From Escherichia coli (GTDB lineage: Bacteria > Pseudomonadota > Gammaproteobacteria > Enterobacterales > Enterobacteriaceae): a DNA stretch of 64,000 nucleotides. Within the stretch, counting starts at the first letter, position 1. Every line of letters begins with the position of its first letter. The DNA is taken from NCBI RefSeq assembly GCF_003334355.1, contig NZ_QOWP01000002.1. One strand, written 5' to 3'. The notes under the pieces are model-generated. The model was not told where the DNA came from, did not search any database, and saw only the letters and a list, made by a program, of their open reading frames with translations. Shown here piece after piece: positions 3,433 through 56,371 of the stretch. Made by a program: the position numbers and the translations under genes.

Positions 3433-3543
3433 ATTTACTGTGATCTGCTTTCCAGATATTTTCCGCTCAAACAACTAATGCGCCAAACATTTATTGCGCG
3501 TAAAATATCGTTTATTTCATTAATACATTTCAGGGATGAATAT

Positions 3544-50693: not shown

Positions 50694-51782
50694 ATGAATA
50701 ACCGGGAAAAGGAGATCCTTGCAATTTTACGGCGTAACCCGCTGATTCAGCAGAACGAAATTGCGGACATGCTGCAAATCAGTCGTTCGCGCGTTGCGGC
50801 GCATATTATGGATTTAATGCGCAAAGGGCGGATTAAAGGCAAAGGTTACATTCTCACCGAGCAGGAATACTGCGTAGTGGTGGGGACAATCAATATGGAT
50901 ATTCGCGGGATGGCGGATATCCGTTACCCGCAAGCGGCTTCTCATCCCGGTACAATTCATTGCTCGGCGGGCGGCGTGGGACGCAACATCGACCACAATC
51001 TGGCGCTGTTAGGCCGTGACGTCCATTTGCTTTCAGTGATTGGCGATGACTTTTATGGCGAAATGCTCCTGGAAGAAACGCGCCGTGCCGGCGTGAATGT
51101 CTCCGGCTGCGTTCGTTTGCATGGTCAAAGCACATCGACGTATCTGGCAATTGCCAATCGAGACGATCAAACCGTGCTGGCGATTAACGATACCCATCTG
51201 CTGGAACAGTTGACACCGCAACTACTGAACGGGTCGCGCGATTTACTTCGTCATGCGGGCGTGGTACTGGCTGATTGCAACCTGACAGCCGAGGCGCTGG
51301 AATGGGTCTTTACCCTCGCTGATGAAATCCCGGTGTTTGTCGATACCGTTTCAGAATTCAAAGCGGGCAAAATCAAACACTGGCTGGCGCATATTCACAC
51401 CCTGAAACCCACTTTACCGGAGCTGGAAATTTTATGGGGACAGGCGATCACCAGCGATGCTGACCGTAATGCCGCAGTGAATGCATTGCATCAGCAAGGT
51501 GTTCAGCAACTGTTTGTTTATTTGCCCGATGAGTCAGTTTATTGCAGCGAAAAGGATGGAGAACAATTTTTGCTGACCGCGCCAGCGCATACGACAGTAG
51601 ACAGTTTTGGTGCTGACGATGGTTTTATGGCGGGCCTGGTATATAGCTTTCTTGAAGGATACAGTTTCCGCGACAGCGCCCGTTTTGCGGTAGCCTGCGC
51701 GGCAATTTCGCGCGCCAGCGGCAGCTTAAACAACCCTACCCTGTCTGCCGATAACGCGCTTTCATTAGTGCCAATGGTGTAA
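50694..51782 (+). CDS. yeiI: YeiI, PfkB-family sugar/nucleoside kinase with N-terminal HTH domain (362 aa)
   Basis: N-terminal winged-helix-like segment (EILAILRRNPLIQQNEIADMLQISRSRVAAHI) followed by a ribokinase-type core. Its translation aligns with PsuK in this same window. Confidence 0.9.
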   Translation: MNNREKEILAILRRNPLIQQNEIADMLQISRSRVAAHIMDLMRKGRIKGKGYILTEQEYCVVVGTINMDIRGMADIRYPQAASHPGTIHCSAGGVGRNIDHNLALLGRDVHLLSVIGDDFYGEMLLEETRRAGVNVSGCVRLHGQSTSTYLAIANRDDQTVLAINDTHLLEQLTPQLLNGSRDLLRHAGVVLADCNLTAEALEWVFTLADEIPVFVDTVSEFKAGKIKHWLAHIHTLKPTLPELEILWGQAITSDADRNAAVNALHQQGVQQLFVYLPDESVYCSEKDGEQFLLTAPAHTTVDSFGADDGFMAGLVYSFLEGYSFRDSARFAVACAAISRASGSLNNPTLSADNALSLVPMV

Positions 51783-51837: not shown

Positions 51838-53088
51838 CTACGCTAAACCAATAAAGAATCCTGCAATAGTAGCACTCATCAGGTTAGAAAGTGTCGCCGC
51901 CGCCAGCGCGCGTAAACCAAGTTGGGCGATTTCCGGCGCACGGTGTGGCGCAACCGCAGAAAACGCCCCCACCACCACCCCGATAGAACCAAAGTTAGCG
52001 AAACCGCACAACGCGAAAGAAATAATCGCCACGGTTTTAGCATCCAGAGTGCCACCCGTTTGCAGATATGGCGAGAAATTGAGATAAGCGACAAATTCAT
52101 TGATCGCCAGCTTCTGCCCAATCAAACTCCCGGCAAGATTTGCATCACTCCAGTCAACCCCCATCACCCACGCCAATGGGGCCAACAGGTAACCTAAAAT
52201 GGACTCCAGCGAGGCATGTGCAAAACCAAACCAGCCGCCAACGCCGCCGATAATACCATTAATTAACGCAATGATGGCGACAAATGCCATAACAACTGTC
52301 GCTACACCGGCGGCGATTTTCAGCCCGGTCATTGCCCCTGTCGCAGCGGCTTCAATAATGCTTTTTGGCGGTGTTTCGGTGAAAGAGAGGTTATTAAAGG
52401 AAACCTGCGAAGATTCCGTAGCCGGGCTTAACAGGCGGGCAAACAAGATCCCGCCTGGGATCGCCATTAACGATGCCGCCAGCAAATATTCCACAGGTAC
52501 GCCCAGGGCGGCGTAACCAATCATTGTCGAACCAGCAATCGAGGCCATGCCACTACAAATCGCTGTAAATAATTCATTGCGATTCAGACGATCGATAAAG
52601 GGTTTGACGATCGCCGGAATTTCGTTTTGCCCGAGGAAAATGGTGGTGACCGCGACGAATGACTCAATCTTGCTGATATTTAATGCTTTCTGGAATATAC
52701 CGCCGAGAATGCGAATTAAAATCCCCATCACACCGATGTAGTAGAGAATACTCACCAGTGCAGTGACGAAGATAATTGCCGGTAATACCCTGAAACCAAA
52801 GATAAATCCTGCGCCATCAAACAGCGTGTCCATTTTCGGCCCGACCAGCGAACCGAAGATAAATGCGCTACCCGCGTCGCTGTACGCCATCACTTTATGC
52901 ACGCCAAAAGCGACTTTTTCAGCGACCCAACGCCCTGGCGGTAACCAAAGCATAATCCCGCCAATCACGACCTGTAACACTAACGCCGCGCCAACGGTAC
53001 GCAGGCTGATCTTCTTCTTGTTTACTGACAGCAAAAACGCAATCGTCAGCAATACCACCATTCCCAGAACACTTCTCATGACATCCAT
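51838..53088 (-). CDS. nupX: NupX (YeiJ), CNT-family nucleoside permease (416 aa)
   Basis: Near-identical paralogue of PsuT in this window. Confidence 0.9.
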   Translation of the reverse strand: MDVMRSVLGMVVLLTIAFLLSVNKKKISLRTVGAALVLQVVIGGIMLWLPPGRWVAEKVAFGVHKVMAYSDAGSAFIFGSLVGPKMDTLFDGAGFIFGFRVLPAIIFVTALVSILYYIGVMGILIRILGGIFQKALNISKIESFVAVTTIFLGQNEIPAIVKPFIDRLNRNELFTAICSGMASIAGSTMIGYAALGVPVEYLLAASLMAIPGGILFARLLSPATESSQVSFNNLSFTETPPKSIIEAAATGAMTGLKIAAGVATVVMAFVAIIALINGIIGGVGGWFGFAHASLESILGYLLAPLAWVMGVDWSDANLAGSLIGQKLAINEFVAYLNFSPYLQTGGTLDAKTVAIISFALCGFANFGSIGVVVGAFSAVAPHRAPEIAQLGLRALAAATLSNLMSATIAGFFIGLA

Positions 53089-53187
53089 AGTTATTATCTC
53101 TTCATGTCATATTGGGCGACGGCTTTCTGCCCATCAGAAATAGCCGGGCTTGGATCTTGCGATACTGACCCGGCTTGTTATCAACAC

Positions 53188-54129
53188 TTAATGGGTTTTG
53201 ATGTAGCCGCGCACGCACTCTTCGACTAAGCCCCAGAACCAGTCGGTATCAATAGTGATGCCGACTTTGGTATTAGCGGGCTTGCCAAGAACGCCCAGCT
53301 CGTCGCAGACGGTACGCCCATAGCAAGGGCCACTGTTGACGTCCACTTCGACGTACATCTCCTGGGTTTTAATGCCATCAGGGTTAATCAGATAACCGAT
53401 GCAGGTGGCGTCGTGCACCGGGCCGCCAGCCAGGCCGTAGTTTTCGAACTGCGTTTTGAGAGTGAAGTTCATGATGTCGCTGAACAGCTCTCCGGCAGGG
53501 CCGCCTGCCCTTTCCATCCGTGCAATCACGTCCGGGGTGCAAACGGTCTGGTTGGTGAGATCGAGGCCCATCATCACTAATGGAACGCCGGAGGTGAACA
53601 CCACGCGGGCTGCTTCCGGATCAGCAAAGATGTTGAACTCGGCAGATGGCGTGAAGTTGCCTGTACCGTAAGCGCCGCCCATTAGCACAATTTCACGGAT
53701 TTTGGGCAGGATCGCGGGTTGCATACGCATTGCCACCGCGATATTTGAAAGCGGACCAACCGGCACCAGAGTGATATCGCCATCGCTTGCCATCAGGGTA
53801 TCAATGATGTATTTCACCGCGTGGGTACTTTCTGCCTGGCGGGTCAGCGGCTCGAATACCGGGCCATCCAGTCCGGTTTCACCGTGAATATTATCGGCAA
53901 CGATTTGTTTACGCATAATGGGTTGCGGCATCCCCGCATAAACCGGAACATTAATCTCCAGTTTCTGGCAAACATTCAGGCCATTAATTAATGTTTTATC
54001 AAGCGTCTGATTACCCGCTACAATAGTGATGCCTAATAAATCTATTGCCGGATGTTTCGCTGCCATCATCATTGCAATAGCATCATCATGACCCGGATCA
54101 CAATCCAGAATAATTTTTCTCTTTTCCAT
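53188..54129 (-). CDS. rihB: RihB (YeiK), pyrimidine-specific ribonucleoside hydrolase (313 aa)
   Basis: Nucleoside hydrolase N-terminal DCDPGHDD motif. Confidence 0.9.
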
Positions 54130-54297
54130 TGTTTATTTCCTCTGTTTCCAGTTGCGTTATTTTTTCTACAGCAAAGAAAATTCGACCGGGCCGATGATTG
54201 AATCTTACCAACCGCGTACGTATGCTAAATATGAGAAATCTCATAGCGGATAAACATCGTGAAAGAAATCCACAATAATGATCTTAAGCAGCAATTG

Positions 54298-54957
54298 ATG
54301 AGTGAATCCGCGTTTAAGGATTGCTTTTTAACGGATGTTTCAGCCGATACGCGGCTGTTTCATTTTTTAGCGCGTGACTACATTGTGCAGGAAGGGCAAC
54401 AGCCGTCCTGGCTGTTTTATCTGACGCGAGGCCGCGCCAGGCTTTACGCCACGCTTGCTAATGGTCGCGTGTCGCTGATCGATTTCTTTGCCGCCCCCTG
54501 TTTTATTGGTGAGATTGAGTTAATCGACAAAGACCATGAACCGCGTGCGGTGCAGGCTATTGAAGAGTGTTGGTGCCTTGCGCTCTCTATGAAACATTAC
54601 CGCCCGCTGTTATTAAACGACACGCTATTTTTACGAAAACTCTGCGTCACCTTAAGTCATAAAAATTATCGTAATATTGTTTCTTTAACTCAGAATCAAT
54701 CATTTCCGTTAGTTAATCGCCTGGCAGCTTTTATATTACTCTCGCAGGAAGGTGATCTTTATCACGAAAAGTATACGCAAGCGGCAGAGTATTTAGGCGT
54801 TTCTTATCGACATCTTTTATATGTTCTCGCGCAATTCATTCACGACGGTTTATTAACTAAAAGCAAGAAAGGGTATCTCATTAAAAACAGAAAGCAGTTG
54901 TCAGGACTGGCGCTGGAGATGGACCCGGAGAATAAATTCTCCGGGATGATGCAGTAA
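54298..54957 (+). CDS. yeiL: YeiL, CRP/FNR-family transcriptional regulator (219 aa)
   Basis: Start trimmed to MSESAFKD to match the K-12 length. C-terminal HTH region. The ORF also allows an earlier ATG at 54259. Confidence 0.8.
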
Positions 54958-55027: not shown

Positions 55028-56278
55028 TTACGCCAGACCAATAAAGAACCCGGCAATAGTCGCACTCATCAGGTTGGAAAGCGTTGCTGCTGCCAGCGCC
55101 CGTAAACCAAGCTGGGCGATTTCTGGAGCACGTTTTGGCGAAATAGCCGAAAATGCGCCAACGACAACACCGATAGAACCAAAGTTAGCAAAACCACAAA
55201 GCGCAAAGGAGATAATCGCAATGGTTTTCACTTCCAGCGTGCCGCCCGTTTGCAGGTATGGGGAGAAACTCAGGTAAGCGACGAATTCGTTAATCGCCAG
55301 TTTCTGCCCAATCAGGCTACCCGCAAGATTGGCATCACTCCAGTCCACACCCATGATCCACGCCAGCGGTGCCAGCACATAGCCAAAAATACTTTCCAGA
55401 GAGGCATTGGCGAAACCAAACCAGCCACCAATTCCGCCGATAATGCCGTTGATCAGCGCAATAATTGCGACAAACGCCATTACCACCGTCGCTACACCAG
55501 CGGCGATTTTCAGCCCGGTCATCGCACCGCTCGCCGCCGCTTCGATAAAGCTTTTTGGCGGCGTTTCGCTGAACGACAGATTTTCAAATGTGACCTGCGA
55601 AGGCTCGGTGGCCGGGCTAAGAATACGTGCAAACAAAATACCACCTGGGATCGCCATCAGCGATGCCGCTAACAGGTAGTCAATTGGTACGCCCATTCCG
55701 GCATAACCAATCATCATCGAACCAGCAATGGACGCCATCCCGCTACAAATTGCGGTAAACAACTCGTTGCGATTCATGCGATCGATAAACGGTTTAACGA
55801 TCGCCGGGATCTCATTTTGCCCGAGGAAAATAGTTGTGACTGCGACAAAAGATTCGATTTTGCTGATGTTAAGAGCTTTCTGGAAAATGCTGCCAAGGAT
55901 GCGAATCAGCAGCCCCATCACGCCAATGTAGTACAGCAGACTGATGAGCGCAGTAACGAAAATAATCGCCGGAAGTACGCGAAAGGCGAAGATAAAACCC
56001 GCACCGTCAAACAGGACATCCATTTTCGGCCCAACCAGCGAACCAAAAATGAAGGCGCTACCGGCATCACTGTAAGACATCACTTTATGAACGCCTAATG
56101 CCGCCTGTTCTACTGCCCATTTTCCCGGTGGGAAGTAGAGCATGATGCCACCAATAGCGATTTGCAGCAGCAGTGCGGCTCCAACCGTACGCAAACTGAT
56201 GCTCTTTTTATTCACTGACAACAGAAATGCTATTGCCAGTAACACCACCATCCCCACAACACTTCTCATTATGTCCAT
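55028..56278 (-). CDS. psuT: PsuT (YeiM), putative pseudouridine/nucleoside transporter of the CNT family (416 aa)
   Basis: Paralogue of NupX in this window. First gene upstream of psuG-psuK on the same strand. Confidence 0.9.
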   Translation of the reverse strand: MDIMRSVVGMVVLLAIAFLLSVNKKSISLRTVGAALLLQIAIGGIMLYFPPGKWAVEQAALGVHKVMSYSDAGSAFIFGSLVGPKMDVLFDGAGFIFAFRVLPAIIFVTALISLLYYIGVMGLLIRILGSIFQKALNISKIESFVAVTTIFLGQNEIPAIVKPFIDRMNRNELFTAICSGMASIAGSMMIGYAGMGVPIDYLLAASLMAIPGGILFARILSPATEPSQVTFENLSFSETPPKSFIEAAASGAMTGLKIAAGVATVVMAFVAIIALINGIIGGIGGWFGFANASLESIFGYVLAPLAWIMGVDWSDANLAGSLIGQKLAINEFVAYLSFSPYLQTGGTLEVKTIAIISFALCGFANFGSIGVVVGAFSAISPKRAPEIAQLGLRALAAATLSNLMSATIAGFFIGLA

Positions 56279-56371
56279 AATGATTTTCCCTTCATGCCAG
56301 TAAACCCGGCGTCAGCGCCAGGTTTTGGTATGTTTGATGAGTACGGGCGACGGCTTTCTGCCCGTCAGAAA

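Follow-up and report, generated by a model that had tools for sequence, protein, structure and literature searches.

YeiI of Escherichia coli, a helix-turn-helix-PfkB fusion that may have traded pseudouridine kinase activity for pseudouridine-responsive repression

In the ROK repressors NagC and Mlc, an N-terminal helix-turn-helix (HTH) precedes a sugar-kinase-like domain that serves as ligand sensor, and active kinases coexist in the same family. In BirA, NadR and the archaeal RbkR, an HTH is fused to an enzyme of the pathway that is regulated. Here, we analyzed YeiI (b2160), whose gene lies on the plus strand at positions 50694..51782 of a 64,000-nucleotide stretch of an Escherichia coli genome (contig NZ_QOWP01000002.1), hereafter the window, and we propose, with belief and doubt in about equal measure, that it is a pseudouridine-sensing repressor of the psuK-psuG-psuT operon derived from a pseudouridine kinase. 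NagC and Mlc would be its nearest functional analogues: the logic is the same, whereas the fold is unrelated (actin-like ATPase versus ribokinase-like), the HTH is of another type, and the sequences share no relationship. The enzyme folds and ligands of BirA, NadR and RbkR differ from those of YeiI, which seems to have abandoned the enzyme function. Regulators of the Lrp/AsnC type belong to the same winged helix-turn-helix class, but their effector part is a small amino-acid-binding RAM domain and no PfkB is present.

The pseudouridine kinase PsuK (PUKI or YeiC; structures 7vkp, 7vtd, and 7vva) shares with YeiI the PfkB fold, the ribose and uracil contacts, and the chromosomal neighborhood. 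Unlike PsuK, YeiI carries an extra N-terminal winged helix and altered Mg2+, K+, ATP-loop and anion-hole residues, and it forms no operon with psuG. The HTH_24-PfkB fusions of Yersinia kristensenii, Pasteurella testudinis, Aeromonas, Vibrio, Shewanella, and many Clostridia have the architecture of YeiI, a near-identical HTH and, upstream of their psu operon, the same palindromic element as is found at E. coli psuK, but they keep the motifs DSNPG, NxxE, LGxxG, and GxGD, which YeiI has lost. Whereas these fusions have the element upstream of their own gene, the site proposed for YeiI lies at the promoter of another gene, where it would act in trans. By analogy, the canonical HTH-PsuK fusions likely act like the enzyme-repressors BirA, NadR, and RbkR. 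The broader proposition, in which YeiI is a catalytically silent PfkB "pseudokinase" working as a pseudouridine-responsive repressor and the HTH-PsuK fusions are kinase/autorepressors sharing the palindrome ATAAACAnnTGTTTAT across phyla, is put forward more tentatively, at somewhat less than an even chance.

The coding sequence of yeiI starts with ATG and specifies 362 amino acids plus a stop, as delimited by the list of open reading frames, by the NCBIfam equivalog NF007416 for YeiI ("sugar kinase"; 811 bits for a cut-off of 561, residues 1 to 362), and by identity with K-12 YeiI at 359 of 362 residues. The PsuK equivalog NF007355 (EC 2.7.1.83) gave 255.3 bits, under its cut-off of 540. The gene was matched in 5423 of the 5426 complete E. 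coli genomes, the three others being without any match. An earlier note on this DNA had read YeiI as an HTH fused to a kinase core homologous to PsuK and had asked for a domain search with profile models, and this search bore out both halves of the reading. The Pfam family HTH_24 was detected at residues 1 to 48 (50694..50837; E=2.3e-10) with all 48 model positions covered, overlapped by weaker HTH_11, MarR_2, and AsnC-type matches and accompanied by an also weak match to the BirA HTH, and PfkB (PF00294) was detected at residues 58 to 348 (50865..51737; E=9e-67). The nearest solved structure is that of E. coli PsuK (EcPUKI, 7vkp), aligned over residues 55 to 359 with 38% identity (E=2.7e-66). 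In an AlphaFold2 model of the monomer built with 73 homologues (predicted local distance difference test score [pLDDT], 91.6; predicted template modeling score [pTM], 0.84), the PfkB fold superposed on EcPUKI with a root-mean-square deviation of 1.5 Å and a target-normalized template modeling score of 0.97, as the top hit of a Foldseek search that also matched ribokinases. The modeled N terminus consists of helices at residues 3 to 14, 20 to 27, and 31 to 43, with short strands behind them (pLDDT, 75 to 94) that we read as the wing. The fold search of the PDB returned no solved structure spanning both domains, and none of the solved relatives has the N-terminal domain.

The HTH-kinase architecture of YeiI is not new as annotation, since HTH_24 plus PfkB is already recorded for these proteins in databases, where YeiI bears the names "sugar kinase" and "putative sugar kinase YeiI." A published compilation counts the protein among the hypothetical transcription factors of E. 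coli (PMC6055005), its function has been termed unknown (PMC9061257, PMC12506659), and machine-learning tools mislabel it as a pseudouridine kinase (PMC12506659). PMC6698644 speaks of "YeiI" as a LysR-type regulator, evidently by mistake for YeiE. In the literature searched, nothing relevant was returned for a described psu-operon regulator, for "PsuR," for an HTH-PfkB regulator, or for b2160 as a transcription factor.

To place YeiI within its family, 78 genome loci were retrieved, and 6 more were added by exact protein look-up. Of the 74 loci outside the close relatives of YeiI, 72 have psuG immediately downstream of the HTH-PfkB gene and on its strand, a linkage found in Gamma- and Betaproteobacteria, Clostridia, Spirochaetes, Atopobium, and Lutibacter, and a CNT-type nucleoside transporter gene stands behind HTH-PfkB-psuG in 7 of the loci. 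These psuG-linked fusions carry canonical kinase motifs. Because psuG lies directly downstream in all but two of these loci, the fusion would serve as the psu-operon pseudouridine kinase in most of the bacteria that carry it. YeiI has the architecture of the family, with HTH_24 and PfkB on one polypeptide, but neither the canonical motifs nor a downstream psuG. In a neighbor-joining tree of the kinase domains, the HTH-less PsuK branches among the HTH-PsuK proteins of Yersinia, Hafnia, Photorhabdus, Pasteurella, and Gilliamella, and the YeiI clade, on a long stem, is sister to the group that stand-alone PsuK forms with the enterobacterial HTH-PsuK proteins; its mean distance to distant homologues is 1.33 versus 1.13. 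The simplest history suggested by this topology is that an HTH-psuK gene was duplicated and that the HTH was then lost from one copy; a tblastn search of the DNA upstream of E. coli psuK for leftover HTH coding sequence yielded nothing above noise (best E, 0.07 to 0.15). Two further observations concern the family at large. Xenorhabdus ehlersii has two HTH-PfkB genes in one genome, both with canonical kinase motifs and neither beside psuG. In three uncultured Gammaproteobacteria (loci L045, L047, and L064), a psuG-linked HTH-PfkB protein has T, G, or S for the N of NxxE and keeps GAGD; since these proteins are psuG linked, loss of this N alone can occur in apparently operonic kinases.

The residues kept and replaced in YeiI were defined by comparing 81 kinases (fusions and stand-alone PsuK) with 16 proteins of the YeiI clade at the 70 positions conserved in at least 90% of the kinases. 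The YeiI clade keeps 53 of the 70, including all 14 in the HTH. The pseudouridine contacts seen in the EcPUKI structure (PMC9061257), PsuK N14, D16, S30', Y97, N112, N143, and K170, correspond to N67, D69, S83, Y150, N165, N196, and K223, all kept in YeiI, and one contact is changed, PsuK M114 being T167 in YeiI. Among them, the pseudouridine-specific contacts (PsuK Ser30, Asn143, and Lys170; PMC9061257), equivalent to S83, N196, and K223, are conserved in 15 to 16 of the 16 YeiI-clade proteins, and D217, E243, and D309 are kept as well. Replacements affect 12 of the 56 conserved kinase-domain positions (N240T, A244L, G278x, G281S, N303D, T305F, G308D, T345I/L, D82A, M160T, M167T, and L78Y), in or beside the Mg2+, K+, ATP-loop, and anion-hole motifs. 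The sequence L-P-D-E-S (residues 277 to 281; 51522..51536) stands in place of the L-G-x-x-G loop, whose glycines have a role in ATP binding in PfkB kinases; G278 and G281 are 96 to 100% conserved in the kinases and found in none of the YeiI clade. At the NxxE Mg2+/phosphate motif, YeiI has T240-L-P-E243 (51411..51422), the N being present in 96% of the 81 kinases versus 0 of 16 YeiI-clade proteins, and PsuK Asn187 lies at the proposed Mg2+ site (PMC9247573). The GxGD anion-hole and catalytic-base motif is G306-A-D-D309 (51609..51620), the second G, found in 81 of 81 kinases (100%), being D in 16 of 16 YeiI-clade proteins; the catalytic Asp (D309) is kept in the clade but is Glu in Affinibrenneria, and in PsuK the proposed catalytic base, Asp256, comes directly after G255 (PMC9061257). 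PsuK N250 and T252, whose main chain binds K+ at the proposed site (PMC9247573), are D and F in YeiI. Replacements in the substrate loop or base pocket are, in PsuK numbering, L25Y, D29A, M107T, and M114T, and T292 is also replaced.

The new residues are themselves fixed, D303 and D308 being found in 16 of the 16 YeiI-clade proteins. The ratio of nonsynonymous to synonymous substitution rates (dN/dS) is 0.02 to 0.05 for the HTH, which is near-invariant from Clostridia to E. coli and is the most constrained part of YeiI, and 0.07 to 0.11 for the PfkB-like domain, similar to that of psuK; YeiI is under strong purifying selection. Given the fixation of new residues in the clade and the low dN/dS, we suggest that YeiI has changed its job and has not decayed, holding on to its DNA-binding domain and to the binding of nucleosides but not to its catalytic apparatus. 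A natural control is provided by Phytobacter sp. (L089, 7949-9052), in which fruA comes directly after nfo-yeiI and the locus holds no psu operon: YeiI there sits on a long branch and has kept neither the pocket residues N67 and S83 nor the E of TxxE. This single case fits a tie between the integrity of the YeiI pocket and an adjacent psu operon.

A candidate operator came from the 200 nucleotides upstream of the HTH-psuK genes, in which all combinations of a 4-mer, a gap, and its reverse complement were counted. The 12-bp palindrome AAAC-N4-GTTT ranked first, with 22 loci versus 0.8 expected, and with at most one mismatch it was present in 56 of 74 loci, versus 6.9 in random windows and 12.8 ± 3.1 in AT-matched windows. 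The consensus, ATAAACAnnTGTTTAT, usually occurs as two copies 18 to 19 bp apart (exactly 19 bp in 16 of 26 pairs), the proximal site lying at a median of 32.5 nucleotides before the ATG. Upstream of HTH-psuK in two Aeromonas and two Vibrio loci, GCAAACGTTTGC-type boxes without a spacer occur besides the N4 palindrome; such boxes resemble LacI/PurR-family operators, and a second regulator may act there.

A weight matrix was built from non-Escherichia HTH-psuK upstream sites only. Scanned over the 64-kb window, it gave its best paired match at 58308-58341, upstream of psuK, where the second-best single match is also found; the score of this pair was reached at no other window position and by 18 of 5000 dinucleotide shuffles of the intergenic region (p ~0.004). 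The candidate YeiI operator (58310..58339, minus strand) is made of two dyads 18 bp apart, dyad A, GAGCACATGTTT, at 58339-58328 and a second dyad, GAACACATGTTT, at 58321-58310. The same 18-bp spacing is found in Hafnia, Yersinia, and Photorhabdus, with a nearly identical first site (AGACACATGTTTAAA in Yersinia). In the alignment of the psuK upstream regions of five species, the dyads form a conserved island, GAACAyrTGTTy, and they are conserved in at least seven YeiI-carrying species. The dyad pair tops the whole 17- to 19-kb locus in [Enterobacter] lignolyticus, Leclercia, and Affinibrenneria, the top pair of Citrobacter werkmanii is found there at a 17-bp spacing, and the pair ranks second in Escherichia albertii. 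The best score upstream of psuK is 11.55, and all other intergenic regions from yeiE to psuG score below 5.6, most of them below 2. With the matrix, no site was found upstream of nfo or yeiI, nor in the nupX-rihB and rihB-yeiL intergenic regions (best scores, 0.9 and 1.7). When up to one mismatch is allowed, the window holds 5 matches to the strict clade pattern GAACANNTGTTC versus 1.9 expected, and the sole match at a promoter is the one upstream of psuK. Other operator spacings were tried as CAAAC-N2-8-GTTTG, which had no exact match in the window.

The position of the dyads relative to the putative psuK promoter points to the sign of the regulation. This promoter (58340..58367, minus strand) comprises a -35 hexamer TTTACT (58367-58362), a 16-nucleotide spacer, and a -10 hexamer TACTAT (58345-58340), and in the five-species alignment TTTAC and TAnnAT are invariant. 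An alternative promoter from a consensus scan, TTTAAA-16-TATATT (58312-58285), was rejected as the main one because this stretch is unconserved in the same alignment. Since dyad A starts one nucleotide past the -10 hexamer, the dyads would cover the start site and the first 25 to 30 transcribed bases, a position typical of a repressor. About 70 nucleotides upstream of the predicted start lies a CRP-like site, TGTGA-N6-TCAAA (TGTGAGCCTGCTCAAA; 58396..58411, minus strand), which is conserved as TGTGA-N6-TCAnA in five Enterobacteriaceae species. Its assignment to CRP follows the known consensus, and it suggests catabolite control of pseudouridine catabolism. Experimental evolution lends this promoter independent support: it is the place of an adaptive single-nucleotide polymorphism (SNP), A>C at NC_000913.2:2257444, which maps to window position 58365 (T on the minus strand, A on the plus strand) and changes TTTACT to TTGACT at the third -35 base; judged from the hexamer, it would be a promoter-up mutation. 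This mapping uses an offset of +1978 between K-12 record versions, which we presume to be correct and which was checked by base identity alone. The SNP, in the psuK/fruA spacer, recurs in the mouse gut (PMC7518454, PMC9509342) and was placed in the psuK promoter by the authors of PMC7518454. A report on long-term stationary phase (PMC7858067) describes one parallel psuK-promoter A>C allele.

Gene order points to the same operon. The window holds, in order, lysP, yeiE, yeiH, nfo, yeiI, nupX, rihB, yeiL, psuT, psuG, psuK, and fruA. The proposed target operon psuK-psuG-psuT (55028..58239, minus strand), which rests on its adjacency to and convergence with yeiI in relatives, consists of the open reading frames psuK (57298-58239), psuG (56372-57310), and psuT (55028-56278), all on the minus strand and named after the K-12 annotation. 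In E. albertii, two Citrobacter, Leclercia, and [Enterobacter] lignolyticus, the series yeiE, yeiH, nfo, and yeiI runs directly into a convergent psuT-psuG-psuK, and in Affinibrenneria yeiI has no adjoining nfo, yet the same convergent layout of yeiI and psuTGK is found. In all of these relatives, the psuK beside yeiI is without an HTH. The yeiI gene is not co-operonic with psuG, as it stands behind nfo and faces a convergent gene on its other side, nupX in E. coli and psuT in the relatives. Comparison of the loci puts the block between yeiI and psuT (51838..54957; nupX, rihB, and yeiL) outside the proposed system. Its open reading frames nupX (51838-53088) and rihB (53188-54129) are both on the minus strand, converging on yeiI, and among the genomes examined the block is present only in E. 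coli, being absent in E. albertii, Citrobacter, Leclercia, [Enterobacter] lignolyticus, and Affinibrenneria, the five relatives in which yeiI directly adjoins psuT. The conserved partner of YeiI is the pseudouridine operon, rather than nupX-rihB.

We propose the following model, which builds on the observed architecture, motif states, gene neighborhoods, palindrome enrichment, and conservation of the site, and in which DNA binding, the target, the sign of the regulation, the ligand, and the loss of kinase activity are inferred. The ancestor would be a winged-helix domain fused to an active PsuK, encoded by the first gene of psuK-psuG(-transporter) operons, that presumably phosphorylates pseudouridine and binds the palindrome just upstream of its own gene. 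In the Enterobacteriaceae lineage, this gene would have been duplicated, the copy without an HTH becoming PsuK and the other copy, YeiI, keeping the HTH and the pseudouridine pocket while residues at the anion hole, at the ATP loop, and at the Mg2+ and K+ sites were replaced. YeiI would dimerize via the PfkB small domain, as PsuK does, and the dimer would bind the two GAACAyrTGTTy dyads over the psuK start, thus repressing psuK-psuG-psuT. Pseudouridine or its 5'-phosphate would then trigger a PsuK-like closure of the dimer, moving the HTH domains and releasing the DNA. Pseudouridine has been shown to alter the quaternary structure of PsuK via Ser30 of the neighboring subunit (PMC9061257), and Ser83 of YeiI is the equivalent of this residue. 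The CRP-like site would add catabolite control to the psuK operon, and the canonical fusions would act alike at their own promoters while also serving as kinase.

The earlier note had cast YeiI as a ligand-responsive regulator of the transporter and hydrolase genes next to it. The idea of a sensor-regulator derived from a kinase is upheld, as far as the conserved HTH, the kept pocket, the replaced catalytic motifs, and the operator-like palindrome allow, and the choice of nupX-rihB as its target is not. A nucleoside sensor acting on these genes would make functional sense, since nupX is a paralogue of psuT (78% nucleotide identity) and rihB is annotated for pyrimidine ribonucleosides, and the physical adjacency in E. 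coli is real; but both genes converge on yeiI, the whole nupX-rihB-yeiL block is missing from all five other YeiI-carrying genera or species, the intergenic regions do not exceed 1.7 with the matrix versus 11.55 at psuK, and rihB has its own divergent Crp/Fnr-type regulator gene, yeiL. We regard such a target as quite improbable. That the psuK-upstream dyads are bound by another factor or are a relic, the HTH of YeiI regulating unlinked genes or its own nfo-yeiI transcript, is improbable too. The modest support inside E. coli (p ~0.004), the RNA polymerase SELEX (systematic evolution of ligands by exponential enrichment) peaks at yeiH>nfo and nfo>yeiI, and the lack of yeiI mutations in the evolution experiments, as far as the accessible parts of these reports go, would suit this explanation. 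Against it, this HTH is, across phyla, the sole DNA-binding domain consistently found beside the palindrome in the loci examined, YeiI is the sole window protein that carries it, the dyads recur in at least seven YeiI-carrying species, and neither nfo nor yeiI has an operator site upstream.

Two other explanations leave YeiI as an enzyme. Its database names would make it merely a sugar or nucleoside kinase with vestigial or structural N-terminal helices and no DNA binding, which is hard to reconcile with a full HTH_24 match, with an HTH that is near-invariant from Clostridia to E. coli and more constrained than the rest of the protein, and with the fact that the kinase motifs are what changed; we consider this extremely improbable. 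A bifunctional kinase-regulator with altered catalysis, whose substrate would have shifted (for example, to a modified pseudouridine or to a different modified pyrimidine nucleoside), deserves more credit and is still unlikely. It would account for the retention of Asp309, E243, D217, and the GG motif, and the replacements fixed to new conserved residues under a dN/dS of ~0.1 suggest that something specific is selected; M114T, M107T, D29A, and L25Y (PsuK numbering) could retune the specificity, PsuK itself accommodating N1-methyl-pseudouridine. However, the N of NxxE, both LGxxG glycines, and the second GxGD glycine, 96 to 100% conserved in the 81 relatives, are altered together, Phytobacter links the integrity of the YeiI pocket to the presence of the psu operon, and E. 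coli already has PsuK for pseudouridine (PMC12506659).

Several points nevertheless weigh against a pseudouridine-sensing repressor of psuK-psuG-psuT. The same retained Asp309, E243, D217, and GG motif make a residual or altered kinase activity of YeiI possible. The operator support from E. coli alone is moderate: dyad A has two mismatches to the clade consensus, the sites of Citrobacter FP75 are outside the top three of their own locus, and the second-best pair of the window, at 3483-3515 (17-bp spacing; score, 17.9) and far from the psu region, scores nearly as high, which is probably a chance match. The yeiI ATG lies 2 nucleotides past the nfo stop, an abutment that suggests a physiological link outside the model. 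Because of this junction and of the RNA polymerase SELEX peaks at yeiH>nfo and nfo>yeiI (PMC3946193), yeiI may be expressed together with or just after nfo. The most serious point is genetic: were YeiI a simple repressor and its loss enough to derepress psuKGT fully, yeiI knock-outs would be expected among adapted clones. In the accessible parts of the mouse-gut and stationary-phase reports, the -35 SNP is the only recurrent psu-linked change and no yeiI loss alleles are mentioned, and the repressors SrlR, DgoR, FrlR, GlpR, and PaaX are described there as repeatedly inactivated in the same evolution experiments. It is possible that pseudouridine is present, YeiI already off, and promoter strength limiting; it is also possible that YeiI is no simple repressor, or that it is not involved.

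If the pseudokinase reading is true, YeiI would be, to our knowledge and in the literature searched, the first transcription factor built on a ribokinase fold. Our proposal assigns YeiI a specific role that can be tested cheaply, names a defined target of 30 bp and a candidate ligand, and offers a regulator for the pseudouridine catabolic operon, for which none has been described in the literature searched and whose promoter has been hit repeatedly during adaptation, in the mouse gut as well as in long-term stationary phase. If correct, it would imply that a duplication split the fusion, one copy keeping the enzyme and the other the regulator, and that bacteria sense a modified nucleoside released by RNA turnover. 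Our analysis also identifies kinase-regulator fusions as a widespread, uncharacterized family that shares a conserved operator. In practice, a biosensor for pseudouridine production strains could be made from a repressor/operator pair that responds to pseudouridine.

Complete E. coli genomes carry two deeply diverged yeiI alleles, 3363 of the K-12 and window type and 2060 that are ~81% identical to it (dS, 0.92; dN/dS, 0.10) and group with E. albertii. The divergent patch, corresponding to window positions 50694-51593 (codons 1 to 300), begins exactly at the start codon and ends near codon 300, with flanks that are ~100% identical, and it resembles a mosaic segment that was introgressed or has long been maintained. 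TxxE and GADD are present in both alleles. A link of the divergent allele to another gene order was considered and rejected, the gene order being the same. The YeiI of the window strain has a strain-specific Asp100 (50991-50993) in the near-invariant GGVGRNIA motif, where K-12 and 96% of the homologues have Ala, and it also departs from K-12 at A81S and A260T. Natural disruptions of yeiI were found in NZ_CP166435.1 and NZ_CP168269.1, the gene being split by IS1 in strain 2024CK-00616 and matched in two places in strain IH5.

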